In this document: positions 13,884 through 60,294 of the stretch, one piece after another
Layout: each line of letters opens with the position of its first letter
How positions within the stretch are numbered: the stretch's first letter is position 1
NCBI GenBank assembly: GCA_963705295.1
Contig: OY970065.1
Span: forward strand, 1,824,001 to 1,888,000
Source: Parachlamydiales bacterium
Lineage (GTDB): Bacteria; Chlamydiota; Chlamydiia; Chlamydiales; Rhabdochlamydiaceae
DNA: 64,000 bases
Reading direction: 5' to 3'
Notes under the pieces: model-generated
Seen by the model: the letters and a program-made list of their open reading frames with translations, nothing else
Told to the model about the DNA's origin: nothing
The model's database searches: none
Translations under genes and position numbers: made by a program

Positions 13884-14465
13884 ATGTCCATTTTTAGTGT
13901 GACAACGTCTCTTTTCTTTGTCCTCAACTCACTCGGAAATGTACCCTTTTTTGTGGGACTCCTCAGTAGCTATCCTCTTAAAAAACAAAAAAAAATTATC
14001 ACCCGAGAGATGCTTATTGCCCTGCTGATTCTGATCATCTTTAATTTTTTTGGAAATCAGATCCTCCATATCCTCGGGATTGATCAGTGCGTCGTCGGAA
14101 TTGCTGGTGGAACCCTTCTATTTATTATTTCTCTCAGCATGATCTTCCCTAAAAAAAACCATCTTAAAGTTCCCAACCGAGAACCGTTTATCTTCCCTCT
14201 AGCCATCCCCGCTATTGCAGGACCAGGTGCGATCACAGCTGTGATGATCTACTCTCAACAAATGCACCCGTTTCATATGCTCATCCCTATCATCCTTGCC
14301 TGGGCAGCCTCCGCCTTTGTCCTCCTCGCCTCTTCCAACATCAAGTTATTTTTAGGCCAAAAGGGGCTCGTTGCCTGCGAAAGACTCGGTGGAATGGTCA
14401 TCTCCTTGATCGCCGTGCAGATGTTTACAACCGGTGTCGTCGGCCTTGTCCAAAACAAATTTTAA
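13884..14465 (+). CDS. MarC family membrane protein
   Basis: LFFVLNSLGNVPFF, IAGG.LLF, PLAIPAIAGPG, G....ERLGG. Confidence 0.9.
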   Translation: MSIFSVTTSLFFVLNSLGNVPFFVGLLSSYPLKKQKKIITREMLIALLILIIFNFFGNQILHILGIDQCVVGIAGGTLLFIISLSMIFPKKNHLKVPNREPFIFPLAIPAIAGPGAITAVMIYSQQMHPFHMLIPIILAWAASAFVLLASSNIKLFLGQKGLVACERLGGMVISLIAVQMFTTGVVGLVQNKF

Positions 14466-15183
14466 ATTAACTTTCCTCGGAACGCGCGGGGAAATCAAAC
14501 CCAAAACTTCCCGTCATCGGATGCACACCTCATTGATGATTTCCCACATGAGAACCAAAATCATGATCGATTGCGGAACATCCTGGCTTGGCAGGCTCGG
14601 TAAAATTAAAGCTGATCATATCATCCTCACCCATGCCCATCCCGACCATGCTTTCGGCCTCAAAAATGGAGCTCCCTGCCCCGTTTGGGCCACACAAGCG
14701 ACCTTCGACTACATTCAAAAATTTCCCATCAAACAAAAACATCTCATCCAGCCTCGTAAAAAAATCCGCATCGCCGGTGTCACGTTCGAGCCGTTTCCCG
14801 TTCTCCATTCGATCCGGTGCCCTGCCGTCGGCTACCGCATCACCTGCAAAAAAATAAAATTTTTCTATGTACCCGATGTCGCTTATATTCCCGACATCGA
14901 CGAGGCGTTCCAGAGCATCCAATTTTACATTGGTGACGGAGCAACACCCTGGCGCCCCATGATCCGTAAAAACAAACAAACCGGTGAAATCTTCGGCCAT
15001 GCTACAATCCGGCAACAACTCACCTGGTGCCATAAACAACATGTCCCCAAAATGATCATCACCCACTGCGGCTCTGAGATTGTCTCCAAAGAAAAACTCG
15101 TGCTCCCCCGCATTCAAGAATTTGCAAAACAAAGAGGCGTCGAAGTTGTTCTCGCTTATGATGGTCTGGAGCTTTCTCTATGA
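14434..15183 (+). CDS. Metallo-beta-lactamase-fold hydrolase (start uncertain)
   Basis: FLGTRG, IDCG, THAHPDH, VLHS, YVPD, GH, ITH, AYDG. Confidence 0.85.
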   Translation: MSSALSKTNFKLTFLGTRGEIKPKTSRHRMHTSLMISHMRTKIMIDCGTSWLGRLGKIKADHIILTHAHPDHAFGLKNGAPCPVWATQATFDYIQKFPIKQKHLIQPRKKIRIAGVTFEPFPVLHSIRCPAVGYRITCKKIKFFYVPDVAYIPDIDEAFQSIQFYIGDGATPWRPMIRKNKQTGEIFGHATIRQQLTWCHKQHVPKMIITHCGSEIVSKEKLVLPRIQEFAKQRGVEVVLAYDGLELSL

Positions 15184-15959
15184 AAGAATATTTATGGACA
15201 TCCGCTGGTGGTAGACTTCAATATCAAAGCGCGCAGGGTACAAGCGCGGTGAACTGGTTATTTCTTCCAGGTGGACCAGGACTGGGCTCCGAAGCTCTCG
15301 CAGATCTGACCGGGCTTCTCAAAGATAAAATCCCCGGGGTTATCTGGCATTTCGATCTACCCAATGACGGCTCAAATCTTTTAAAAGATAAATCACTATC
15401 CAACTGGCGCGCTGCTATTACCCAAGCCGTTACAGCTTTTGAGAAAGTCGTCTTGGTTGCACACTCCACTCCAGGCATGTACGTCCAAACCATGCCTCAA
15501 CTTGAAAACCTATTACATGGCCTTGTCCTCATCGGTTCTGCACCCGATGCTTCATGGCAAAAATCACTCCCTAAAGAAATCATCGAACCAAAAAATGATG
15601 ATGAACTGAGGAAATTGTTAATTGCCTCAGCACACCAGTGCTTTGTCACAGACAAATCTCTAGAACAGGGAAAAGAATTATTTAAAAGAATTCCTGTCAA
15701 TAACAGAGCGCATGAACTCTCCTCAAAAATTTTTGACGTAGAAAATTATAAGGCGACATTCATCCCAAAACATCTGAAGACCCTGATTATAACCGGTTCG
15801 AGCGATCACATCACTCCTTCTGCCCTGTTCAAAAACAATCCGCTCTATCAAAGAGAGAATATTTTAATCAGAGAAATCCCTCAAGCTGGCCACTATCCGT
15901 GGTTTGAAAATCCCAAAGAAGTCGCTCACGCATTTCAAGATTTTTCTAGAAAAACCTGA
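15180..15959 (+). CDS. Alpha/beta hydrolase
   Basis: FLPGGPG oxyanion loop, VAHS.PG elbow, GSSDHITP, AGHYPWFENP. Confidence 0.85.
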   Translation: MKEYLWTSAGGRLQYQSAQGTSAVNWLFLPGGPGLGSEALADLTGLLKDKIPGVIWHFDLPNDGSNLLKDKSLSNWRAAITQAVTAFEKVVLVAHSTPGMYVQTMPQLENLLHGLVLIGSAPDASWQKSLPKEIIEPKNDDELRKLLIASAHQCFVTDKSLEQGKELFKRIPVNNRAHELSSKIFDVENYKATFIPKHLKTLIITGSSDHITPSALFKNNPLYQRENILIREIPQAGHYPWFENPKEVAHAFQDFSRKT

Positions 15960-15963
15960 AAAG

Positions 15964-16077
15964 ATACGGCCAAATTTGGCCGTATTCCCCCCAATACGGC
16001 CAAAAAGCTTGAAATTTGGCCGTATTTACCCTAAAATTGGCCGTATATGGACTTTAGAGACAAAAAAATGGCCGTAT
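15964..16077. promoter_or_regulatory. Six TGGCCGTAT boxes upstream of and overlapping the Fic gene start (putative operator array)
   Basis: ATACGGCCA at 15964 and 15994; TGGCCGTAT at 15977, 16017, 16038, 16069; perfect 22-bp palindrome at 15964-15985. Confidence 0.65.
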
Positions 16078-17411
16078 TACACCGGTTAAGCCAAGAGTCA
16101 GAAACAATCAGTTTATTGGAGCTCCTTAAAAAATTGGGCGAGGAGTTCGCTGAACGGAGTGTTAGACGTTGGTTGATGGAGATGATCAAAGAAGGTTTAG
16201 TTGAAAAAATAGGAAGCAAAAGAGCCACAAAATACAGAGCTACGACACGTGCCCAATCCCGTCGAATTGACACAAGGAGTTGTTTTAGCTCAGATAGTCT
16301 AAAAGTGCTGATCCAAGTGCGAAAACCGCTTTTTGAGAGGAATCCTTCCGACTACTCCGAAGAATGGTTCGATTCTTACAAACCGAATGCAACGTTCTAT
16401 ATTCCCCTAAGTTTTAGGACACAACTTCATCAAGCGGGTAAAAGATCTAAACAACACGACCCTGCTGGCACCTATGCTCATCAAATTTTTGATCGTTTAC
16501 TCATAGACCTTTCCTATAATTCCTCAAGGTTAGAAGGAAATTCATATTCTCTTTTAGATACCCAACGTTTAATTCTTGAAGGTAAAGGAGCCGAAGGAAA
16601 ACTCTACGAAGATAAAGTGATGATTCTAAATCACAAAGAAGCCATCCATTATTTAGTCGATAATGCGCCGCGCTTAAAAATAAGCACGAGGACAATCTAT
16701 ACTCTTCATTACCTTCTCTCAGATGGTTTAGTAGAAGCCGAGCATTCTGGAAAAGTTAGAGATCATACGATTCGTATTGGAGGCTCAACCTACATTCCTT
16801 TCGAAGATCCAAAACGGCTCCGTTTCCAACTGGAGCGGATAACAGAAAAAGCCTCCCTCATAAACGATCCTTATGAACAGAGTCTTTTTTTACTTGTTCA
16901 TATCAGCTATTTACAAGCTTTTTCTGACGTCAACAAAAGAACAGCGCGCTTAAGTGCAAATCTACCTCTTATTACACATAATTTTGTTCCTCTTTCCTTC
17001 AATGATGTCGAAAGGAATGATTATATTTCTGCGATCATTGCGATTTATGAATTACAAAATGTGCAGCCCTTAGTAGATCTTTATATCTATTCTTACATGC
17101 GGACTTGCGCTATGTACGATTCAACTATAAAAGCCATAGGCTTTGATGAAGTGCGGGTCCGTTACAGGCAAGAGCGCCGTGCGATTATCCGTAATATTAT
17201 TCTTCATCAACTCACCGATGACGGTATGAAAGATTACATCGATTCTCAAACAAAAAAATTAATTCCTGAAAATGACCGAGAAGCTTTTATTGCGGATATT
17301 ATGGAAGATCTTCACATGATGAATGGTAATCGCATTGCAGGACTCGGAATTACTTTAGATCAACTGGCTGATTGGTCAAAAAAAACCGGATTCGCGGAGC
17401 GAGAGGAATGA
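16047..17411 (+). CDS. Fic-family protein with an N-terminal winged-HTH domain
   Basis: N-terminal wHTH (SVRRWL..MIKEGLVEKIG....TKY), SSRLEGN, ILNHK, Fic-like motif YLQAFSDVNKRTARL. Confidence 0.9.
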   Translation: MDFRDKKMAVLHRLSQESETISLLELLKKLGEEFAERSVRRWLMEMIKEGLVEKIGSKRATKYRATTRAQSRRIDTRSCFSSDSLKVLIQVRKPLFERNPSDYSEEWFDSYKPNATFYIPLSFRTQLHQAGKRSKQHDPAGTYAHQIFDRLLIDLSYNSSRLEGNSYSLLDTQRLILEGKGAEGKLYEDKVMILNHKEAIHYLVDNAPRLKISTRTIYTLHYLLSDGLVEAEHSGKVRDHTIRIGGSTYIPFEDPKRLRFQLERITEKASLINDPYEQSLFLLVHISYLQAFSDVNKRTARLSANLPLITHNFVPLSFNDVERNDYISAIIAIYELQNVQPLVDLYIYSYMRTCAMYDSTIKAIGFDEVRVRYRQERRAIIRNIILHQLTDDGMKDYIDSQTKKLIPENDREAFIADIMEDLHMMNGNRIAGLGITLDQLADWSKKTGFAEREE

Positions 17412-17421
17412 GATGGTCATC
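17375..17421. repeat. Left copy of the duplicated radC 3' end (att-like direct repeat)
   Basis: 30 bp at 17375-17404 are identical to 23472-23501, and 14 bp at 17408-17421 are identical to 23522-23535. Confidence 0.9.
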
Positions 17422-17436
17422 CATATTGCCAATACA

Positions 17437-18372
17437 TCATGTAAAAAAAAGAGGGGCTGTAAAAATCAAACTATCGATCCGATCGAGCAATCCTCCGTGA
17501 CCGGGCAAAAGTGTCCCAAAGTCTTTGACTTTGACATCACGCTTTAGGGCTGACATCGTAATGTCACCCAGAAATCCGGCAATGCTTAGGATAACTCCTA
17601 CGAAAGCAGCTAAAGTAGAACCCATAGGTGTCAAAAAAGGTGCAATGAGTATCGAGAAAATAACCGTCGTAACGATTCCTCCTAAAAGTCCTTCGTAGGT
17701 TTTTTTTGGACTAATACTCGGCACAATCTTATGTCTCCCAAAAAGCTTACCCCACATGTATTGGGATGCATCGTTGATTTCCGTAATAAAAAGCAAAAAC
17801 AACATCAGACCTAAAGGTCCTGCTTTGAATCCTATCTGAGAAGAAAAGACAGGTAGATAAGCAACATAGCTCAAGCTATACCCAGCCATCATAATTCCCC
17901 AGTACATGCTCCCCATAGCTTGGAGAAAACCCTCCGTCGTGCCCACGATGATCATCCGAATGGGAATGAGCAGATAAACATATACCGGAATAAAGATCAG
18001 AAAAAGAGTATAACATTCCATCAAAATAAAACCGTATTGGATCGGAATAGATAAATAGAGCCATAATCTGACACGTTGATCTTCTAGACGTTTAGGAATG
18101 ACAAAAAGATATTCCCGAAGGGCAAAGAGGCTAATGAACATCCAAAGTAAAATTAAGCACCAGGGACGGGTCAGAAAAACGATTCCAAAGACACCTACAA
18201 TATACCACCAGGCCAGGATACGTTCTTTAAGATCGGCAAATCTACCTTCTGAATTTTGTTTTATCCAAATAAAAATCTGAAAAAGTCCTAGCAAGGCAAC
18301 AATGAAAAACAATGCCCATAAAATGGGTGGTGTGAGTAATGGAAACCATTCAAAAAATAAATTATTTTCCAT
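17437..18372 (-). CDS. Phosphatidate cytidylyltransferase, YnbB/CdsA-like; C-terminus probably shortened by a 1-bp loss in a T tract
   Basis: ND.SQY.WGKLFGRHKI.P.ISPKKT.EG, GD...SALKRD..VKD.G.LLPGHGG.LDRIDS. Confidence 0.9.
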   Translation of the reverse strand: MENNLFFEWFPLLTPPILWALFFIVALLGLFQIFIWIKQNSEGRFADLKERILAWWYIVGVFGIVFLTRPWCLILLWMFISLFALREYLFVIPKRLEDQRVRLWLYLSIPIQYGFILMECYTLFLIFIPVYVYLLIPIRMIIVGTTEGFLQAMGSMYWGIMMAGYSLSYVAYLPVFSSQIGFKAGPLGLMLFLLFITEINDASQYMWGKLFGRHKIVPSISPKKTYEGLLGGIVTTVIFSILIAPFLTPMGSTLAAFVGVILSIAGFLGDITMSALKRDVKVKDFGTLLPGHGGLLDRIDSLIFTAPLFFT

Positions 18373-18447
18373 TTAAGATAAAGACTATACCTCAATTTTG
18401 TTATCTGGGGTGCTTTTTTTTACCAATTCCTCTATAATCCCCTATCT

Positions 18448-19056
18448 ATGGACATTGGATTATACAATTTAAAATATCCCTTTAGGAAAATGATCGGTTT
18501 TTTACTCCCCTTTTTTAGAAATACCCATCCTAATTGGGTTAGTTTATCTCTCATTCCCATTGGGTTATTCACAGCTTTTATTTATTTCTTTGCTCCTCAG
18601 GCACCCATTCTCTATACCATAGGAGCCTTGATGATTCTTTTTCGAATGGTGGTTGGAACTTTAGATGGCCTTATCGCTGTTAAATTCGAAAAGAGCACAC
18701 CGAGTGGCGAAATCATTAACCGGATCGCCCCAGAAATCTGCGATATCTTTTTGATGATCGCCCTCAGCTATTCAGCGCCGGCCTATACTTACCTGGGTAT
18801 CTCGGCGATGGGAATGTGCTGGGCAGTGACATTTTTTGGGCTCGTTGGGATTGTAGCTGGAAGGAAAATTCAAAGCGTTGGTCCAGTAGGACAGACCGAT
18901 CGGATTGCAGCATTGAGTTTATGCTCCGTCCTCCAATATTTTAGTTCTACTTATCATTGGGGTTTTGATTTTATCTATCTCTTTTTGTGGTGGGTTATTG
19001 TGGGCAGCCTCATCACAGTAGGACTCCGGATTTGGCGCACCTTTCGAATTTTATGA
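18448..19056 (+). CDS. CDP-alcohol phosphatidyltransferase, YnbA-like
   Basis: LY.LK..FR, HPN.VS, R....LDG.IA......TP.GE.IN......CD, GP.GQTDR. Confidence 0.85.
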   Translation: MDIGLYNLKYPFRKMIGFLLPFFRNTHPNWVSLSLIPIGLFTAFIYFFAPQAPILYTIGALMILFRMVVGTLDGLIAVKFEKSTPSGEIINRIAPEICDIFLMIALSYSAPAYTYLGISAMGMCWAVTFFGLVGIVAGRKIQSVGPVGQTDRIAALSLCSVLQYFSSTYHWGFDFIYLFLWWVIVGSLITVGLRIWRTFRIL

Positions 19057-21020
19057 AGTCTCTACGTCAACGTTTTCCTATTTTACAAGACGGAATTTTC
19101 CTGAATCACGCTGCTACAGCCCCAGTATCCTATGCGACGATCGATCGAATGAAAGCTCTTTGCGATGAAATGCAAAAGCCTCTAGGAGAACATTTCTACC
19201 GCTGGCTCGGGATCTTGGAAGAAACCCGTCGTTTGGTAGCCGAACTTCTCCATGCACATCCGAGTGAAATCGCTTTCACACAAAACACATCATCTTCGCT
19301 CAGTATCATCGCTGGATGTATCGACTTTAAACCAGGAGATCGGGTTCTTGTTCCCCGAGATGAATTCCCTTCTAATCGATATGTTTGGCAAAATCTTAAA
19401 TACCGGGGTGTTGAGTGCTCCTTTTTCGATATTCCGAATGATCAACCCTTACTTGAAGTCTTAGAAAAACAAAATCTTTCCAAGGTTCGTTTAATCGCCC
19501 TAAGCCTGGTCGGTTATCAGACTGGAAAAAAACATGATCTAAAATCGTTTGGGCGATTTTGCCTAGAAAATAACATTTTTAGCTGTGTTGATGCTATTCA
19601 AGCTGTTGGCACAATTCCTATAGATCTTAGAGATTCTCAAATCGATTTTCTAGCCGGAGGCGCTCAGAAATGGCTTCTTGGACCTATTGGATGCGGATAT
19701 TTTTATATTCGTAAAGATCTAATTGAAAAAGTGAATGTCCCTCTCGTAGGTTGGACTAGCACAAGCTACCCTGAAAACTTTGATCTCATGGAGCTCGATT
19801 TCGCTCCTGAAGCACTCCGATTTGAGCCCGGACTTACCAATATCGCTTCCATTGGCGGTTTCAATCAATCGCTGCGAGAATTGGGAAATATTGGTTGGGA
19901 TTATATTTATGAGAAAATCGCAACCAATACACGTTATCTTATAGAAAATCTACGTCAGGTTGAGGGTCTTGAGCTGGCTACCCATGATCCACAAAATCTT
20001 GGTGCCCTCGTCAGCTTTAGAATACCTAAGACCATCAATCCTAAAAAACTCCTTCCTGAACTTGCGAAAAAAGGGATTGTGATTACCGCAAGAGGAAATT
20101 CCCTACGTGTATCGCCCCATTTTTACAATACTACCACTGAACTAGATACATTCATGCAAACCATCGCCAAGCAATTCGATAATCGTCGTATTTTTTTCCC
20201 TGATATACATATTAAAAAACTGCCTCAGAAACAATCGATTTTGCTGCTGGGAGCAACTGGCATATTAGGACAAGAGATCGCTCTCTATCTAGCGGAAAAA
20301 GGGTTCAATGTCACAGGAATTGGTAGAAATATAGCCACCTTAAATGAGCTTCAACAAAAGATTGAAGGTCAATTTCAAACTGGTTTTGAACCGATTGTTT
20401 TAGATCTCATGGATCAAGAGGCTATTACAAAATTTTTCGATACACAACTGTCGCAGCAAAAAAAATATGTTGGACTCATCAACTGCGCTGGAATTGTTGA
20501 AGCAGAACGAGCAGCCGCTTTGAACCCTGTAAAACTCTCCGAAATGTTTCAGGTCAACATGTTAGCCCCCTCTCAATTCATGCAGAATTTTATTTCGAAT
20601 CTCTGTTCAGAAGATGCCATCGGCATCTTAAATATTGTTTCTCCTTCTGGACGTTGTGGTTATCCATTGCTTGGAGGTTATGCTGCGACCCATGCTGCAT
20701 TATGGACCTTTAGCGAGAGTTTAAATCGAGAATTGTTCAAAGAAAAGTTACACGTCACGACTTATGTGGCCGCTCCTATCCATTCTCGCATGCAAAAAAG
20801 GATTGGCCGAACTTTGCTCCGTTACTTTCAAATGAAAGGAAAGTTTAATTACGACCATGCTGAGGAAGTCGCACGTCTTGCGGTGGATGCCTTCTTTGCA
20901 CGAAAAGAGGTTGTTATGAGCCTCAAAAACCGTATTCGTCTGATTTTGAATGCCCTAGCTCCCCGTTTCCTGACCCGCAAAATTTCCAAATTTTGGCTTT
21001 TAGAAAATGCCAAATATTAA
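19053..21020 (+). CDS. Fusion of a PLP-dependent class-V aminotransferase-like domain and a C-terminal SDR domain
   Basis: FLNHAA.AP, EFPSN, VDAIQAVG, PLP lysine GAQKWLLGP, RFEPG, LRVSPHFYN; then LLGATGILG, LINCAG, VN, NIVS, GYAATH. ATG at 19053 overlaps the upstream stop (ATGA). Confidence 0.85.
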   Translation: MKSLRQRFPILQDGIFLNHAATAPVSYATIDRMKALCDEMQKPLGEHFYRWLGILEETRRLVAELLHAHPSEIAFTQNTSSSLSIIAGCIDFKPGDRVLVPRDEFPSNRYVWQNLKYRGVECSFFDIPNDQPLLEVLEKQNLSKVRLIALSLVGYQTGKKHDLKSFGRFCLENNIFSCVDAIQAVGTIPIDLRDSQIDFLAGGAQKWLLGPIGCGYFYIRKDLIEKVNVPLVGWTSTSYPENFDLMELDFAPEALRFEPGLTNIASIGGFNQSLRELGNIGWDYIYEKIATNTRYLIENLRQVEGLELATHDPQNLGALVSFRIPKTINPKKLLPELAKKGIVITARGNSLRVSPHFYNTTTELDTFMQTIAKQFDNRRIFFPDIHIKKLPQKQSILLLGATGILGQEIALYLAEKGFNVTGIGRNIATLNELQQKIEGQFQTGFEPIVLDLMDQEAITKFFDTQLSQQKKYVGLINCAGIVEAERAAALNPVKLSEMFQVNMLAPSQFMQNFISNLCSEDAIGILNIVSPSGRCGYPLLGGYAATHAALWTFSESLNRELFKEKLHVTTYVAAPIHSRMQKRIGRTLLRYFQMKGKFNYDHAEEVARLAVDAFFARKEVVMSLKNRIRLILNALAPRFLTRKISKFWLLENAKY

Positions 21021-23514
21021 TAAATCGATCGCGGATTACATTGAATGTCTCGCATCGGAATTTGATTCTCAAATTGCTATAACGTACTATCACCGATTCC
21101 GCTCGACAACTTACACGTATCGTCAAATCTATGAATTGGCTCTTAAATGTTCGGTTTTCTTTTATGAAAAAGGAATTATTAAAGGGGATCGCATATTGAT
21201 TTATGGAGACAACTGTCCCGAGTGGGTTGTTGTTTTACTAAGCTGCGCCTTGACGGGTATTATTTTAGTTCCTATAGACAGTAAGTCTCCACCTGAGTTT
21301 GTAGAGAAAATAAGGAAAGAAACCGATGCTAAATGGGTCATTTCTGATGCTTCTATTCCCTCGCAAAATACCGTTTTGGATCATCTTTTTTCGATTATCG
21401 AAGCGCATGACTCTAGTCTGTTTTTCAAAAAAAGAGCCCGCTTAAGTCGTGATGATATTTTCGAGATTCTTTACACATCGGGAACTACGGCAGCTCCTAA
21501 AGGCGCCGTCATTCGACATCGGAATTTTATTGCGAGCATTTGGGGACTGCGGGAGCACCATTTAGTTTGTAATAAAAACTGCCGATTTTTATCGATGCTT
21601 CCCTTAAGCCATGTTTTAGAACAGAATGGAGGTTGCCTCTCTGTACTTCGATTTGGAGGCCAGATTGTATATGCGAAACAAGTCCGATTTGCTCGCATCG
21701 TTGAAATCCTAATCCAAGAAAAAATTACCCATATTGTCAGCGTACCGGCTATTTTGAAGAGATTTCAAAACAAAATTGTAGAAGAAAGCGAAACTGGGGG
21801 CACGTCGCATCAATTAAAAAAGCTGCTCCATTTCTCTCAAAATCTTCCTACATTTCTGAGACGACTTTTGTCTCGACCTTTGAGGCAAAAAATTGGACCC
21901 CATCTTCAAGCTTTCCTATGTGGGGGCGCACCATTGAATTTAAGTACTGAGACTTTTTGGGAGAATTTAGGAATTAAGGTCATTCAAGGTTACGGTCTCA
22001 CGGAAAGTTGTGCCATGAGCTGCATAAATACCTTTAATCATCGTCAAAAAGGATCTGTAGGAAAACCCATTCCCAATCAAACTCTCACCCTAGGTAAGGA
22101 CAACGAAATCCTTCTTCGCGGAGATAACATCATTTCCGAATATTACAATGCTCCTGAACTCAATCGAGAATATTTTCGAGATGGATGGTACCATACGGGT
22201 GATGTAGGTCGATGGGATGATGAAGGGAATTTATATATCGTTGGCCGTTTAAAAGAGATGATTCTCACCTCCAATGGACTCAATGTTTTCCCTACAGACA
22301 TTGAAGAAATCTTAAATAATATGGAGGGGATAAAGGAAAGTGCTGTCTTCGAGGATCCTCTGCATGAAGGTAAACTTCTAGCAGGCATTATTCTGGAGAA
22401 TCAAGAAATTGACACGCATATCACCCTTGAAAAAACAAATCGACAACTTGCAACGCATCAACACTTAAGTCAGCTAATTCCTTGGTTTCACCCTTATTTA
22501 CCTAAAACTGTTTCTTTAAAGATTAAGCGGAATGAACTTCCAAAAATCTATGAGCAATATTCCACAAAAAAAGTGAGCGTCTCACAACCACAACAAGATC
22601 CTCTTCTTCATATCATTGCTGAGATCTGTCGGGTTCCCGCCTCAGGCTTAGCCCCTGAAACGACTTTAGTTAAAAACTTAAATTTTGATTCACTCAATCT
22701 TGTCGATCTTGTAATTCGACTTGAGTCACAGTTCCGCGTTGATATTGACGAAGCCCAGTTAAACCGAGATTGTAGTATCCAGCAACTCCGCAAACTCATT
22801 ATAGCAGCGCAAAAAATAAAGAAACCACCTCGTCTTTCCCCTTTCTATTGGTCTAGATCTGCAAAAATCATCAGACGGATTTTGCGTATGACCATGGAAG
22901 GAATTATTCGAAGATGGATCAAGATTGAAGTGGTCGGAGTGATTCCTGAAATTCCTAAAAATCGACCGACAATTTTCATTGCTAATCATACAAGTCACTT
23001 AGATACTTTTTCCATTCTGGGAACGGTTCCTTCCTATTTCAAATACCGTATCGCTATCGCAGCAGCCTATGACTATTTTTTTGGAGAGAAAAAAAAGAGA
23101 AGTTTTTTCATGAATCCACTTTTAATCCCTATGTTCCCTTTCCACAGAGATGACTATTTTAGTGAAAATCTGAAAAATATGGGCGAACTTCTCAAGAGTG
23201 GACAACACCTACTCATTTTCCCTGAAGGGACTAGGAGCCGAAATGGAACTATGGCATCTTTTAAGCCTGGTATAGGAATGATTGTAAAAGAAATGAACGC
23301 TCAGGTTGTCCCTATTCACATCGATGGAGCTTATCAGCTATGGCCTTCCTCTGCATCCTATCCGAAAAAAGGAAAGATTCAAGTACGGTATGGCAAACCG
23401 ATAAGCTTCGATTCCACCTTTTCTCCTGAAACGATTACATCCACCTTAGAAACCCATGTCCGCGAACTCGCGTCAAAAAAAACCGGATTCGCGGAGCGAG
23501 ACGAACGAGTTTGA
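21007..23514 (+). CDS. Tri-domain acyl-AMP/acyl-CoA ligase - acyl carrier protein - lysophospholipid acyltransferase
   Basis: ILYTSGTT..PKG, QGYGLTE, GWYHTGD.G, GR.KEMI, PKT.SLKIKR; ACP FDSL with the Ser intact; acyltransferase ANHTSHLD and FPEGTRS. Confidence 0.9.
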   Translation: MPNINKSIADYIECLASEFDSQIAITYYHRFRSTTYTYRQIYELALKCSVFFYEKGIIKGDRILIYGDNCPEWVVVLLSCALTGIILVPIDSKSPPEFVEKIRKETDAKWVISDASIPSQNTVLDHLFSIIEAHDSSLFFKKRARLSRDDIFEILYTSGTTAAPKGAVIRHRNFIASIWGLREHHLVCNKNCRFLSMLPLSHVLEQNGGCLSVLRFGGQIVYAKQVRFARIVEILIQEKITHIVSVPAILKRFQNKIVEESETGGTSHQLKKLLHFSQNLPTFLRRLLSRPLRQKIGPHLQAFLCGGAPLNLSTETFWENLGIKVIQGYGLTESCAMSCINTFNHRQKGSVGKPIPNQTLTLGKDNEILLRGDNIISEYYNAPELNREYFRDGWYHTGDVGRWDDEGNLYIVGRLKEMILTSNGLNVFPTDIEEILNNMEGIKESAVFEDPLHEGKLLAGIILENQEIDTHITLEKTNRQLATHQHLSQLIPWFHPYLPKTVSLKIKRNELPKIYEQYSTKKVSVSQPQQDPLLHIIAEICRVPASGLAPETTLVKNLNFDSLNLVDLVIRLESQFRVDIDEAQLNRDCSIQQLRKLIIAAQKIKKPPRLSPFYWSRSAKIIRRILRMTMEGIIRRWIKIEVVGVIPEIPKNRPTIFIANHTSHLDTFSILGTVPSYFKYRIAIAAAYDYFFGEKKKRSFFMNPLLIPMFPFHRDDYFSENLKNMGELLKSGQHLLIFPEGTRSRNGTMASFKPGIGMIVKEMNAQVVPIHIDGAYQLWPSSASYPKKGKIQVRYGKPISFDSTFSPETITSTLETHVRELASKKTGFAERDERV

Positions 23515-23535
23515 ACCGATGATGAGATGGTCATC
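23472..23535. repeat. Right copy of the direct repeat (actual 3' end of radC)
   Basis: Matches 17375-17421 apart from a net 17-bp segment missing from the left copy. Confidence 0.9.
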
Positions 23536-24138
23536 GAAGCCGATTCCCATGACTTTACTGGATCTTAGGAGATGTTGTGTGAGTTCAAGGTCGGCCCCTG
23601 ATGGAGTGGGATCGCCACTCGGATGATTGTGAGCGAGGATGAGGCTGCTGGCTTTATGGCGTACAGCTGGAAAAAATATTTCACGTGGATGGACTAAGAC
23701 CTCGGAAAGGGTACCGATGGAGACTTTTTCGCAGCCGATGAGCCGTTGTTTGACATCTTTCAAGATCACCATCAAGATTTCGTGTTTTTGATGGGCTAGA
23801 TCGTTTTTTACCAGTTCATAGGCTTCTTTTGCTCGGATGGGCAAAGAGGGTGAGAATGTTTTTTGGGTTAGCTTGAGGGCGATGCCAAAGGCGGCTTTGA
23901 GTTGAATCGCTTTCGCTCTTCCAATTCCCTTGATTTCCATGAGCTCTTCAATCGATGCTCCTAAAAGTTTTTCTCCAAACTTTGCAACGATTTCTTGAGA
24001 CAGTTCGAGGACCGATTTTTCTTTGGTTCCGGTCGTCAGCAAAATAGCGACGAGTTCCGTGAGTGAAAGAGCGTCGATTCCCAGTGACATGAGACGCTCG
24101 CGGGGCCTTTCTTGCGGAGGTAGTTTAAGCAAGCTCAT
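23473..24138 (-). CDS. radC: RadC (UPF0758/JAB domain) protein
   Basis: ERPRERL...G..ALS..EL.AILL.TG, IKGIG.AKA, VHPREIF, AHNHPSGDPTPS.AD, DHLII. Confidence 0.95.
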   Translation of the reverse strand: MSLLKLPPQERPRERLMSLGIDALSLTELVAILLTTGTKEKSVLELSQEIVAKFGEKLLGASIEELMEIKGIGRAKAIQLKAAFGIALKLTQKTFSPSLPIRAKEAYELVKNDLAHQKHEILMVILKDVKQRLIGCEKVSIGTLSEVLVHPREIFFPAVRHKASSLILAHNHPSGDPTPSGADLELTQHLLRSSKVMGIGFDDHLIIGSNSFVSLRESGFF

Positions 24139-30454: not shown

Positions 30455-30499
30455 CAAACCGGATTCTAGGAGATAATTCGAAAAACTGCAATAAAAGGA

Positions 30500-30573
30500 T
30501 GCGGCCACCTGGATTTGAACTAGGGACCTCGACATTATCAGTGTCGCGCTCTAACCAACTGAGCTATGACCGC
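30500..30573 (-). tRNA. tRNA-Ile (GAT)
   Basis: GCGGTCA/TGGCCGC acceptor stem, AGCTCAGTTGGTTAGAGC D-arm, CGACA-CT-GAT-AA-TGTCG anticodon arm, GTTCAAATC T-loop (one T-stem mismatch). Confidence 0.95.
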
Positions 30574-30587
30574 ATGATAGACTAACT

Positions 30588-30660
30588 TGGAGGTTAGGAG
30601 ACTCGAACTCCTGACCCTCTGAATGCAAATCAGATGCTCTACCAACTGAGCTAAACCCCC
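30588..30660 (-). tRNA. tRNA-Ala (TGC)
   Basis: GGGGGTT/AACCTCC acceptor with G3:U70, TCTGA-TT-TGC-AT-TCAGA anticodon arm, GTTCGAGTC T-loop. Confidence 0.97.
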
Positions 30661-59461: not shown

Positions 59462-60294
59462 TCGTCTTCGTCCTCGGGTTCGAAGTCTTGGAGGGTTTTG
59501 GATTTTTTTCCAGCGATCATGCGGATGGTTGAAAGAATGACCCCGAGAAGGATGTAGCCCCAGCAGATACCCATGAGCATGAAGGGGAAGAAATGGAGAA
59601 TCCCATAGAGAATAAAAATCGCAGTAATCACGGTGAGAAGAACCAATTGAAACGGAGGGACCCGAAAATGGAGTGTCTTTAGACTCGGAAATTTCCATCG
59701 ACTCACCATCAAAAATCCGAGGACGATCCAAATACACGTCAAAACGACTGCCACCGTCGACTCTTTCCACTGAAACCATTCGTGTGCAAAAGGGCTCATG
59801 AAAAACAGATTGGTTGAAACCGCAGCTATTGCACCCGCAGGAATCGGCAAACCGGTGAAATTCTTCTTCTGCGCCGCCTCTTCCTCCACGTTCCCCTTTG
59901 CCTGGGTCGATTTCACACTAAATCGAACCAGCCTCAAGATCCCGCAGATCGAATAGAGCATCGCTCCCACCACTGCAAAAAACGACAGCCCCGTCCCCTG
60001 CTCCAATGACAAACTCTTCAACAACAATACCGACGGCGCCACCCCAAATGAAACCGCGTCCGCCAGCGAGTCAAAAACAAACCCAAACTCACTCTCCGCC
60101 CTTATAATCCGTGCCACCGCCCCATCCAACAAGTCAGCAAATGCCGCCATCAATAACAACAACAGCGAAGTAAAAAGGACCTGATAGCTCCCCGACCCCG
60201 GCTCAATCATGTTCACCTTAAAGATGACAAAAAGCCCGCACGCGAGCCCAAATGCCGTGATCGCATTCGGTATCAAAAAGACCTGCTTCCTCAT
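59458..60294 (-). CDS. pssA: CDP-diacylglycerol--serine O-phosphatidyltransferase
   Basis: PN.IT...L.CG, D.LDG..AR......SEFG..FDSLAD.VSFGVAP, RL.RF, F.GLP.PA. Confidence 0.93.
   Translation of the reverse strand: MRKQVFLIPNAITAFGLACGLFVIFKVNMIEPGSGSYQVLFTSLLLLLMAAFADLLDGAVARIIRAESEFGFVFDSLADAVSFGVAPSVLLLKSLSLEQGTGLSFFAVVGAMLYSICGILRLVRFSVKSTQAKGNVEEEAAQKKNFTGLPIPAGAIAAVSTNLFFMSPFAHEWFQWKESTVAVVLTCIWIVLGFLMVSRWKFPSLKTLHFRVPPFQLVLLTVITAIFILYGILHFFPFMLMGICWGYILLGVILSTIRMIAGKKSKTLQDFEPEDEDE

Follow-up and report, generated by a model that had tools for sequence, protein, structure and literature searches.

A laterally acquired cassette of ynb-type lipid genes with a PLP/SDR fusion in an environmental chlamydia

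Closest described systems

The ynbABCD locus of E. coli pairs a CdsA paralogue of the YnbB type with a short CDP-alcohol transferase of the YnbA type, and the same pairing is found in the four-gene chlamydial cassette described here, which was analysed in a window of 64,000 nucleotides (the whole stretch of DNA, to which all coordinates refer). In contrast to ynbABCD, the window contains neither YnbC nor YnbD (PF12147 has no match in the genome), but a PLP/SDR fusion and a ligase-ACP-acyltransferase instead. Moreover, E. coli YnbA keeps the fourth aspartate of the transferase signature, whereas the YnbA-like protein of the cassette has a proline there. Where PMC6362211 deals with YnbB, the only experimental datum on the protein links it to the glycolipid MPIase rather than to a phospholipid head group: its overproduction raises MPIase in E. 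coli, it does not substitute for CdsA in bulk phospholipid synthesis, and CdsA/YnbB are reported to act in making GlcNAc-pyrophosphate-diacylglycerol for MPIase.

A second comparison is offered by the two-step phosphatidylinositol route of Bacteroides thetaiotaomicron, with its PIP synthase and PIP phosphatase (BT_1523/BT_1525), as outlined in the relevant part of PMC9246714. In that route, a small CDP-alcohol transferase carries out a CDP-diacylglycerol-dependent head-group transfer, which is followed by head-group processing. Of the named families, those of archaetidylinositol-phosphate synthase and PIP synthase come nearest to the YnbA-like protein, at about 41 bits, far below the cut-off of 180. 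However, the cassette has no phosphatase, the catalytic signature of its YnbA-like protein is not kept, and no match to inositol-1-phosphate synthase was found in the genome (94.7% complete).

The last gene of the cassette shares with Myxococcus xanthus ElbD, an ether-lipid enzyme, the order acyl-CoA-synthetase-like ligase, ACP and AGPAT-like acyltransferase within one polypeptide, as originally predicted. Unlike ElbD, it lacks the N-terminal fatty-acyl reductase, and the neighbouring SDR is not of the FAR type, so ether-lipid chemistry is not implied; in the pertinent section of PMC9131029, ElbD-like homologues outside myxobacteria are likewise described as mostly lacking the FAR1 domain. In E. 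coli Aas (2-acylglycerophosphoethanolamine acyltransferase / acyl-ACP synthetase), a further likeness, the activation of a free fatty acid and its transfer to a lysophospholipid are combined in one protein. Among named models, those of the Aas type match the acyltransferase domain best (70 bits, far under the cut-off of 1221), although the cassette protein has the opposite domain order and contains a carrier domain. Finally, the PLP domain of the fusion and C-DES both lack the loop bearing the persulfide cysteine of SufS, and keep the PLP lysine and the arginine to which the alpha-carboxylate binds in SufS. The cassette protein carries phenylalanine at the first histidine of the SufS-type EHH motif, the residue that presumably stacks on PLP, and matches the EgtE model at 56 bits (cut-off 400); unlike C-DES and EgtE-type enzymes, it joins its PLP domain to an SDR and stays tied to genes for membrane lipids. 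No characterised pathway that combines these genes was found in literature searches, in agreement with the original prediction.

Layout and boundaries of the cassette

The features of the locus are as follows.

14434-15183, plus strand: MBL-fold hydrolase (Pfam), same 9-kb island
15180-15959, plus strand: alpha/beta hydrolase (Pfam), same 9-kb island
16047-17411, plus strand: Fic-domain protein (Pfam), same 9-kb island
14466-17374, plus strand: neighbouring part of the island, with the MBL-fold, alpha/beta hydrolase and Fic genes
17375-17421, no strand: left direct-repeat copy, 47 nt duplicated from the 3' end of radC, at the left cassette boundary (aligned to 23472-23540 and to a same-genus radC end)
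17437-18372, minus strand: YnbB-type CdsA paralogue (CDP-diacylglycerol synthase family), 311 aa, PF01148, opposite in orientation to the other three cassette genes
18373-18447, no strand: divergent intergenic region of 75 nt between the YnbB-like and YnbA-like genes, with presumed promoters
18448-19056, plus strand: divergent YnbA-type membrane protein, CDP-alcohol phosphatidyltransferase superfamily, 202 aa, PF01066
19053-21020, plus strand: PLP/SDR fusion, 655 aa, N-terminal class-V PLP domain (PF00266) and C-terminal SDR (PF00106)
21007-23514, plus strand: ligase-ACP-acyltransferase (fatty-acid adenylating, PlsC/Aas-type), 835 aa, PF00501, PF00550 and PF01553
23472-23540, no strand: right direct-repeat copy, the resident radC 3' end (repeat search and alignment)
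23473-24138, minus strand: radC (NCBIfam RadC, 224 bits against a cut-off of 180)

The four open reading frames run uninterrupted across 17437-23514, and the arrangement that had been foreseen, three overlapping genes plus a divergent YnbB-like gene with the domains now identified by Pfam, is confirmed. The first two plus-strand genes overlap at an ATGA (19053-19056), where the true start of the PLP/SDR frame lies (19053, although the longest reading begins at 18987), and the last two share 14 nt (21007-21020). A consensus promoter scan found no promoters in 18373-18447. All reading frames agree in length with their homologues and no frameshift was found in the cassette genes, so that the repair of a T tract called for earlier is unnecessary; the A8/T8 run corresponds to the terminal codons of radC, inside the flanking repeat. 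The final ~10-25 residues of the ligase-ACP-acyltransferase extend beyond the ends of the homologue alignments and are partly encoded antisense to the radC end.

That the genes form a discrete cassette, as had been proposed, is borne out by the duplicated radC 3' end that brackets them and by the absence of the 9-kb island holding them between marC and radC in all three same-genus genomes examined. The window contains a 21-mer of the repeat exactly two times, against none expected from shuffles, and the count for the whole 2.13-Mb genome is also two. The G+C content is 0.407, compared with 0.45-0.46 in the flanks, and the PLP/SDR fusion is rare in the sample of the phylum. The alpha/beta hydrolase and Fic proteins of the island had no tblastn match in 81 related loci.

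Protein families and conservation across genomes

The YnbB-like protein (CTP_transf_1, 211 bits) shares 45% identity with E. coli YnbB across 272 residues (E 4e-74), and its predicted placement rests on this full-length similarity; its alignment to the CdsA encoded in the same genome is confined to the C-terminal 125 aa. Together with a BLASTP match of its partner to E. coli YnbA (E 6e-10), this upholds the proposed YnbA/YnbB-like pair. The expected separation from the housekeeping route is supported as well: a housekeeping CdsA gene in an uppS-cdsA context and three further CDP-alcohol transferases lie elsewhere in the genome. That the YnbA-like protein is an ordinary CDP-alcohol transferase, as had been assumed, is not supported. 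It only just matches CDP-OH_P_transf (22.6 bits, cut-off 22), and in its family the signature (DX2DGX2AR...GX3DX3D, in the form quoted from PMC9246714) retains only the second of its four aspartates, other residues standing in place of the first, third and fourth and of the arginine. The family motif is conserved yet non-canonical, with 35 invariant columns across 23 sequences, and these proteins may, judging from the degenerate signature, be no phosphatidyl transferases at all. All 23 members match the archaetidylinositol-phosphate synthase model far below its cut-off, and 8/23 match the PIP synthase model, again far below the curated cut-off. The branch is small (28 representatives at E<=1e-30 versus 1434 at E<=1e-3); some relatives are fused to flavodoxin-like and Methyltransf_20 domains.

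In the fusion protein (Aminotran_5, 170.6 bits; adh_short, 93.2 bits; full-length model pLDDT 88.9), the PLP residues Lys206, Asp180, Gln183 and Arg352 are invariant in 80/80 homologues and His356 is found in 79. The PLP domain resembles C-DES cystine lyase, its best structural fit (1elq, TM 0.90, rmsd 2.1 A), and SufS, although without the cysteine loop of the latter. Stand-alone paralogues 53-61% identical to this domain reside in non-lipid contexts, and the 61%-identical one takes the place expected for EgtE in an ergothioneine operon, following an EgtB-EgtD fusion (TIGR03440, 553.6 bits; TIGR03438, 372.7 bits). An assignment as alpha-oxoamine synthase was considered and rejected, given class V membership, the C-DES/SufS likeness and the lack of a PF00155 match in the Pfam search. 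The SDR domain (model pLDDT 92.6) is closest to HSD17B13 (TM 0.82), a membrane- and lipid-droplet-associated enzyme, and to 11-beta-HSD1, a likeness of the model that weakly suggests a lipid-facing substrate. The classical SDR of the original prediction is not supported: the YxxxK lysine is kept in 24/80 homologues and replaced by H, Q, N or another residue in 56, including the cassette protein and its clade, and the domain may have little or no redox activity left.

The ligase-ACP-acyltransferase matches AMP-binding (219.9 bits), PP-binding (32.8) and Acyltransferase (68.8) in Pfam, and its three-domain architecture recurs through the best 120 homologues listed; the acyltransferase domain is nearest to Aas-type and AGPAT models, below cut-offs. 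The claim that most catalytic motifs are intact holds for the PLP lysine, the acyltransferase HX4D, the ACP serine and the adenylation motifs, but not for the SDR lysine or for three of the four transferase aspartates.

Synteny was counted over 34 distinct fusion loci, after dropping L001, which shares a contig with L003. The YnbA-like gene lies directly upstream of the fusion in 33/34 (at the exception, L017, the upstream DNA ends after 131 nt) and the YnbB-like gene within 2.5 kb in 31/34, the three exceptions being cut by contig ends. These loci form two deep clades and span Chlamydiota, Pseudomonadota, Bdellovibrionota, Planctomycetota, Acidobacteriota, Omnitrophota, Eiseniibacteriota and Vulcanimicrobiota. 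The predicted gene association is conserved in other genomes, but the conserved unit consists of three genes, the YnbB-like gene, the YnbA-like gene and the PLP/SDR fusion, and not of four. An acyltransferase is fused, free-standing or absent, by clade: it is present in 19/34 loci, as an adjacent three-domain fusion in four and free-standing in 15, and Legionellaceae and Bdellovibrionota loci have neither the ligase-ACP-acyltransferase gene nor any acyltransferase. Ligase and ACP are absent from 30/34 loci, two of which end at a contig end right after the fusion. The deep second clade encodes alpha/beta hydrolases and, in 5/9 loci scanned, Methyltransf_20, the same pair of domains that makes up E. 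coli YnbC. Between loci, the 12 genes tested had no neighbours in common.

Candidate pathway and rival readings

We consider the cassette to be, with a probability of about 0.55, an accessory CDP-diacylglycerol head-group route of the ynb type within glycerophospholipid synthesis, to which PLP/SDR tailoring and a dedicated means of acyl loading would have been added. The YnbB-type CdsA paralogue would convert phosphatidate and CTP into a dedicated CDP-diacylglycerol pool, from which the YnbA-type protein would transfer the phosphatidyl group to an acceptor hydroxyl, by family likeness that of a polyol phosphate or of a hydroxy or amino acid. The PLP/SDR fusion, translationally coupled to the transferase gene, would remodel the head group or make the acceptor, its PLP domain catalysing a transamination or beta-elimination at an alpha-amino-acid centre and its NADP-type SDR domain acting on a neighbouring carbonyl or hydroxyl. 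The ligase-ACP-acyltransferase could then activate a free fatty acid, perhaps taken from the host, on the carrier domain built into it, and acylate the product at its head group or in a lyso-form. The scheme is favoured by the family placements, the separate housekeeping genes, the conserved synteny, the YnbC domains in the second clade, the invariant residues of the PLP site and of the YnbA-like family, and the cassette boundaries.

Several observations run counter to this scheme. The PLP domain has its nearest relatives among C-S lyases (C-DES by structure, and the paralogue in EgtE position), not among transaminases, and such an enzyme would cleave, and not modify, an amino acid attached to a lipid. 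The missing SDR lysine, the replaced YnbA-like aspartates, the lack of an inositol-1-phosphate synthase match and the experimental link of YnbB to MPIase belong here as well, and no acceptor-synthesis gene was found linked to the cassette.

The enzymes could, alternatively, aminate the lipid backbone, the SDR oxidising the sn-2 hydroxyl of lysophosphatidate to a ketone resembling acyl-dihydroxyacetone-phosphate, the PLP domain transaminating it and the acyltransferase N-acylating the amine, to give an amide-linked phosphatidate analogue served by its own CdsA and transferase paralogues. Such a scheme uses every enzyme once, would explain why the fusion is accompanied by dedicated paralogues of the YnbB and YnbA types, follows the oxidise-then-transaminate logic of the GnnA/GnnB route to lipid A amino sugars, an analogy for a fused dehydrogenase and PLP enzyme, and accords with the acyltransferase in 19/34 clusters. 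We nonetheless regard it as improbable: the SDR lysine is absent in the clade of the cassette, the PLP domain falls among lyase-type class-V enzymes, the Legionellaceae and Bdellovibrionota loci manage without an acyltransferase, and we know of no such lipid. By analogy with MPIase, YnbA and YnbB might instead join CDP-diacylglycerol to a sugar phosphate, with the SDR and PLP domains turning a sugar hydroxyl into an amine and the acyltransferase perhaps acylating that amine. Sugar aminotransferases, however, belong to the DegT family and not to class V, and no glycosyltransferase or nucleotide-sugar gene is conserved beside the core, the neighbours of the 12 tested genes being unshared. This makes a glycolipid anchor quite improbable, despite the YnbB data cited above (PMC6362211, as far as its account of YnbB extends) and the affinity of the YnbA-like family to synthases of phosphorylated polyols, which itself lies far below curated cut-offs.

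In the chemistry first proposed, the PLP enzyme would condense an ACP-bound acyl chain with an amino acid and the SDR would reduce the product to a sphingoid-like amino alcohol, to be acylated and joined to a head group through a CDP-lipid. The ligase-ACP-acyltransferase order does stand next to the PLP/SDR protein as described, and fusions of class I/II aminotransferase domains to SDRs exist in other organisms, as a lead only. Against this, the PLP domain is of class V, 30/34 loci (two of them truncated) do without ligase or ACP, a CdsA paralogue uses phosphatidate as its substrate, a kinase is lacking, and the SDR lysine is missing; we therefore hold a sphingoid or amino-alcohol backbone to be most unlikely. 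It is also very unlikely that the genes do not form one pathway, the PLP/SDR protein being, for instance, a C-S lyase in the soluble metabolism of sulfur or amino acids, beside lipid genes to which it bears no functional relation. The stand-alone paralogues in non-lipid contexts would fit such a role, but the fused form sits directly downstream of a YnbA-like gene in almost every locus, in both deep clades and in several phyla.

Taken as an accessory head-group route, the four-gene cassette, a lateral acquisition in an environmental chlamydia, probably makes a membrane phospholipid.

The cassette and its chromosomal setting

All four lipid genes that the original prediction had read from the sequence are present as uninterrupted ORFs with the Pfam domains claimed for them, as listed below. 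None of the four proteins scored above the curated cut-off of an NCBIfam model.

Features of the island and of the lipid cassette
14466-23472: island between a marC-family gene and radC, containing an MBL-fold hydrolase, an alpha/beta hydrolase, a Fic-domain protein and the four lipid genes
17437-18372, minus strand: ORF, YnbB-type cytidylyltransferase; CTP_transf_1 (PF01148), 211 bits, cut-off 24
18448-19056, plus strand: ORF, YnbA-like protein, 202 aa; CDP-OH_P_transf (PF01066), 22.6 bits, cut-off 22
18987-21020, plus strand: ORF, PLP/SDR fusion, likely start 19053; Aminotran_5, 170.6 bits, then adh_short, 93.2 bits
21007-23514, plus strand: ligase-ACP-acyltransferase; AMP-binding 219.9, PP-binding 32.8 and Acyltransferase 68.8 bits

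The YnbA-like and fusion genes overlap by a stop/start ATGA at 19053-19056, so that the fusion most likely begins at 19053 and comprises 655 aa, and the third and fourth genes of the cassette share 14 nt. No T tract or frameshift of the kind suspected earlier was found in the cassette, and the ORF lengths agree with those of homologues. A consensus scan for promoters and terminators yielded seven promoter-like sites against 14 expected, none of them in the divergent intergenic region, and an Rfam scan of the 64-kb window returned two tRNAs only. Neither public sequencing runs nor RNA data were listed for 17400-23520. The tRNA-Ile(GAT)/tRNA-Ala(TGC) genes at 30497-30660 (minus strand) form the pair usual for rRNA spacers; 0 rRNA genes were detected in the window.

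The cassette is discrete, as had been proposed. Of the same-genus genomes, three were compared at this locus, and all three lack the island and have radC immediately next to the marC-family gene; in the window, ~9 kb (14466-23472) lies between the two genes. A direct repeat brackets the four lipid genes: positions 17375-17421 copy the 3' end of radC (23472-23540), apart from a 17-nt gap, and a 21-mer taken from it has two copies in the window, against 0 expected, and two in the whole genome. The G+C content of the cassette is 0.407, compared with 0.464 and 0.452 in the flanks. Matches to the fusion profile at E<=1e-70 were found in 15 of the 300 scored genomes of the phylum, including the window's own (whole fusion spanned in six, partly in two, PLP domain only in seven), and in 0 of 61 genomes of the window's own family. 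In a quick maximum-likelihood tree, the window fusion nests with Simkaniaceae-type sequences (SH-aLRT 98-99). Combined, the absence of the island from relatives, the repeat, the base composition, the rarity in the family and the tree placement point to lateral acquisition of the cassette at the radC end. No integrase gene is found among the annotated ORFs. For the cassette proteins, as for HflX in the flank, the closest relatives come from uncultured Chlamydiota; HflX shares 71-77% identity with MAGs that carry the labels Parachlamydiales and Candidatus Rhabdochlamydia.

Two further features of the island concern its reading frames and a short repeat. The ORFs for the Fic-domain protein and the ligase-ACP-acyltransferase each run into a copy of the radC-end repeat, at 17375-17411 and 23472-23514 respectively, and hence their C-termini are nearly the same peptide, encoded antisense to radC. 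A 14-nt motif is present in four direct copies at 15972-16077 and one inverted copy at 15964-15977 (region 15964-16083); the copies surround the start of the Fic gene (16047), the last lying within its ORF, and the set could represent an operator array.

A conserved gene trio of the ynb kind

The window proteins were compared by tblastn with 81 related loci; 80 loci were listed of 237 reported, and 34 distinct loci among those listed carry the fusion (L001, which duplicates L003, was left out). In 33 of these 34 loci the gene immediately upstream of the fusion is the YnbA-like one; the remaining locus has 131 nt of upstream DNA. In 31 loci a YnbB-like gene lies no more than 2.5 kb away, and the other three are truncated at contig edges. 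The predicted co-occurrence of all four genes thus stands for the trio, which is kept together across the listed loci, but not for the three-domain ligase-ACP-acyltransferase, which is adjacent in only four of the 34, all close chlamydial relatives. In two other loci (L025 and L029), flagged ligases proved to be unrelated AMP-binding genes several kb away with 23-24% identity. A separate PlsC-type acyltransferase gene accompanies the fusion in 15 of the 34 listed loci. To look for further pathway genes, 12 neighbouring genes from seven loci were compared with L001-L081 and the whole genome; no gene was shared between loci. The closest relative's cassette is flanked by epimerase and PfkB genes, of which the window's genome has copies (73% and 81% identical) elsewhere, and these two are therefore read as ordinary chromosomal neighbours.

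In the same quick tree, the fusions form two clades, each with 100% SH-aLRT. Clade one unites the window with Simkaniaceae-type and Anoxychlamydiales MAGs, Legionellaceae, Bdellovibrionota and Vulcanimicrobiota; clade two contains Parachlamydiaceae, Planctomycetota, Gammaproteobacteria, Omnitrophota, Acidobacteriota and Eiseniibacteriota. The clade-two gene order is YnbB-like, acyltransferase, Methyltransf_20, YnbA-like, fusion, and an alpha/beta hydrolase is frequently part of the cluster; Methyltransf_20 was found in five of nine loci scanned and PlsY in one clade-two locus. Four loci, from three Bdellovibrionota and one Vulcanimicrobiota MAG (L015, L019, L020 and L021), have a second, more canonical CDP-alcohol transferase ahead of the YnbB-like, YnbA-like and fusion genes, giving two transferase pairs in tandem, and L020 has an additional second CdsA gene.

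The window cytidylyltransferase belongs to the CdsA family by sequence (PF01148) and is similar to YnbB over its full length, including the N-terminal half (45% identity to E. coli YnbB over 272 residues). It aligns with the CdsA of its own genome along the last 125 residues only, and scores 95.8 bits with the CdsA equivalog model, for which the cut-off is 385. The YnbA-like protein, with a YnbB-type neighbour, matches E. coli YnbA at E 6e-10 (27% identity over 100 aa) and shares with it the family motif GPxG[Q/K][T/S]DR. E. coli YnbC consists of a hydrolase and a Methyltransf_20 domain, both of which also occur in clade-two fusion clusters, and YnbD of PAP2 and dual-specificity phosphatase domains. 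The cassette differs from ynb in that the PLP/SDR fusion replaces the usual hydrolase/methyltransferase and phosphatase partners. Given this domain make-up and the YnbB and YnbA matches, the system belongs by its sequences among the clusters of the ynb kind, but has another tailoring set. In the literature outside subscription journals, we found neither a characterised pathway with the cassette's gene set, in line with the original prediction, nor a function for ynbA, ynbC, ynbD or a cluster with such domains.

The genome (one 2.13-Mb contig, 94.7% complete) has a second CdsA gene in a uppS-cdsA context and three other CDP-alcohol transferases elsewhere, which argues that the cassette is accessory. 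The gene following the housekeeping cdsA (L084:158-1498, in the same genome) seems to encode a cytidylate kinase-PlsC-type acyltransferase fusion of 446 aa. The window has one more CDP-alcohol phosphatidyltransferase gene (59767-60276, minus strand; PF01066 64 bits), in a 281-aa open frame; its product probably serves housekeeping head-group synthesis.

Predicted chemistry of the encoded proteins

The YnbA-like family was aligned as 32 members (31 loci and the window; outgroup, E. coli YnbA) and in a 23-row alignment, and has 35 invariant columns; the protein is strongly constrained and may still transfer a phosphatidyl group. The profile retrieved 28 proteins at E<=1e-30 and 1434 at E<=1e-3 from 1.84 billion representatives. 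The CDP-alcohol transferase signature is given as DX2DGX2AR...GX3DX3D in a previous study (PMC9246714). The counterpart in the YnbA-like family, [G/A]TLDGLxA-x9-G-x3-NR-x2-PE-x2-D, departs from this canonical form, retaining the glycines and only the second of the signature aspartates. PF01066 at E<=1e-5 was matched by none of nine family members scanned, the window protein lying just above the cut-off (22.6 vs 22 bits). All of 23 members matched the archaetidylinositol-phosphate synthase model, eight the PIP synthase, three the PgsA and two the PssA model, always far under the cut-offs; inositol-1-phosphate synthase had no match in the 94.7% complete genome. Among ten longer relatives scanned, seven (P0268-P0286) continue after the YnbA-like part into a flavodoxin-like domain, giving proteins of ~370 aa; two of the seven, of 626 and 645 aa, are also fused to Methyltransf_20, the methyltransferase domain of YnbC. 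A predicted complex of the fusion with the YnbA-like protein scored 0.00 against a mark of 0.32.

The N-terminal part of the fusion is a class-V PLP domain (PF00266, 170.6 bits). All 80 full-length homologues keep its PLP lysine, Lys206, together with Asp180, Gln183 and Arg352, and 79 of the 80 keep His356. Asp180 is presumably the aspartate that pairs with the PLP pyridine nitrogen, and Arg352 aligns with the SufS arginine that binds the substrate carboxylate, so that an alpha-amino acid is predicted as the substrate or donor. An alignment to 5b7s shows that the domain has lost the SufS persulfide-cysteine loop, which excludes a cysteine desulfurase (SufS/IscS/CsdA); with the SufS model it reaches 125 bits, where 475 is the cut-off. 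The structure predicted for the whole fusion (pLDDT 88.9, pTM 0.78) fits best the cystine lyase C-DES (TM 0.90, rmsd 2.1 A), most SufS entries giving TM 0.80-0.82 at about 3.1-3.3 A. Chlamydiota also hold stand-alone paralogues 53-61% identical to the PLP domain. One of them (61%), sharing the NEFPSN, QKWLLGP and RVxPHFYN motifs, is a non-canonical class-V PLP enzyme following an EgtB-EgtD fusion, with both models above their cut-offs, in a Chlamydiota MAG (L008:304-3691), in what looks like an ergothioneine-type operon in a chlamydia. On the strength of the C-DES fit and this gene context, the nearest assignment suggested for the PLP domain is C-S lyase chemistry rather than transamination.

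Classical SDRs combine a TGxxxG glycine-rich motif with an N-S-Y-K catalytic tetrad. The SDR domain retains the glycine motif, Asn, Ser and Tyr, but no more than 24 of 80 homologues, all of a distant clade, have the lysine of YxxxK, which is replaced by His in the window protein and by H, Q or N in most others; the domain is accordingly not the classical SDR first supposed. Its model (pLDDT 92.6) is closest to HSD17B13 (TM 0.82) and also matched 11-beta-HSD1, both of them lipid-handling, membrane-associated SDRs, a faint hint that the domain might act on a lipid substrate. An arginine after the second SDR strand, a position associated with NADP(H) preference, suggests NADP(H) as the cofactor.

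The translated ligase-ACP-acyltransferase has the HX4D and FPEGTRS motifs of the acyltransferase, the serine of the DSL motif in the carrier domain and the motifs for adenylation, and the acyltransferase is nearest to Aas-type and AGPAT models. The architecture is common, recurring through the best 120 of 1105 homologues at E<=1e-3 among 8000 candidates, and these 120 span many phyla. The protein would most likely load a free fatty acid onto its own carrier domain and acylate a lysolipid. It resembles ElbD in its ligase, ACP and acyltransferase but lacks the reductase domain of the four-domain ElbD; according to a review, ElbD has an extra N-terminal FAR1-like reductase, and most ElbD-like homologues outside myxobacteria are devoid of FAR1 (PMC9131029).

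Interpretation and significance

The reading with the best support is that the cassette is accessory and adds a head-group pathway of the ynb kind that depends on CDP-diacylglycerol, with putative PLP/SDR tailoring and its own acyl supply. Its general part, a ynb-kind head-group pathway, is well supported by synteny; chance adjacency of the genes is one rival. A sphingoid route was one option of the original prediction and is rejected: the window fusion has no match to PF00155, the family of alpha-oxoamine synthases and serine palmitoyltransferase, at E<=1e-3. Two ESM Atlas matches at 0.93 join a class I/II aminotransferase to an SDR; they are analogous proteins of another family and suggest no functional name. 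Amination of the lipid backbone is a further rival. For the chemistry of the head-group reading, the degenerate transferase signature, the loss of the lysine from the SDR and the relationship of the PLP domain to lyases speak against a simple 'transfer, oxidise, transaminate' scheme. The product might also be a glycolipid anchor: according to one report, YnbB overproduction increases the glycolipid MPIase, YnbB is unable to substitute for CdsA, and its N-terminal half is assigned no role (PMC6362211). The original observation is confirmed, and the interpretation given with it has partial support.

We further propose, tentatively and with a probability of about three in ten, that the trio makes an undescribed phospholipid class with a PLP-built head group on the lipid, and that the ability to do so travels in a compact cassette between host-dependent and predatory bacteria. 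Candidate head groups would be, for example, amino-, hydroxy-acid- or thiol-bearing; the host-dependent and predatory carriers of the trio are Chlamydiota, Legionellaceae and Bdellovibrionota.

The cassette is a variant of an already known, uncharacterised type of system, and a clean example of a lipid pathway transferred between chlamydial lineages. Clusters of the ynb type are widespread, and the product of E. coli ynbABCD is not yet assigned. The PLP/SDR variant, found in bacteria living inside or preying on other cells, has cofactors that are easy to follow and is reducible to three genes, making the cassette a compact, transferable and experimentally tractable entry to the ynb problem. 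If the proposal is true, identification of the trio's product would provide the first access to the chemistry behind the orphan ynb operon of E. coli, add a class of bacterial membrane lipids and set limits on the general function of YnbA-type transferases.
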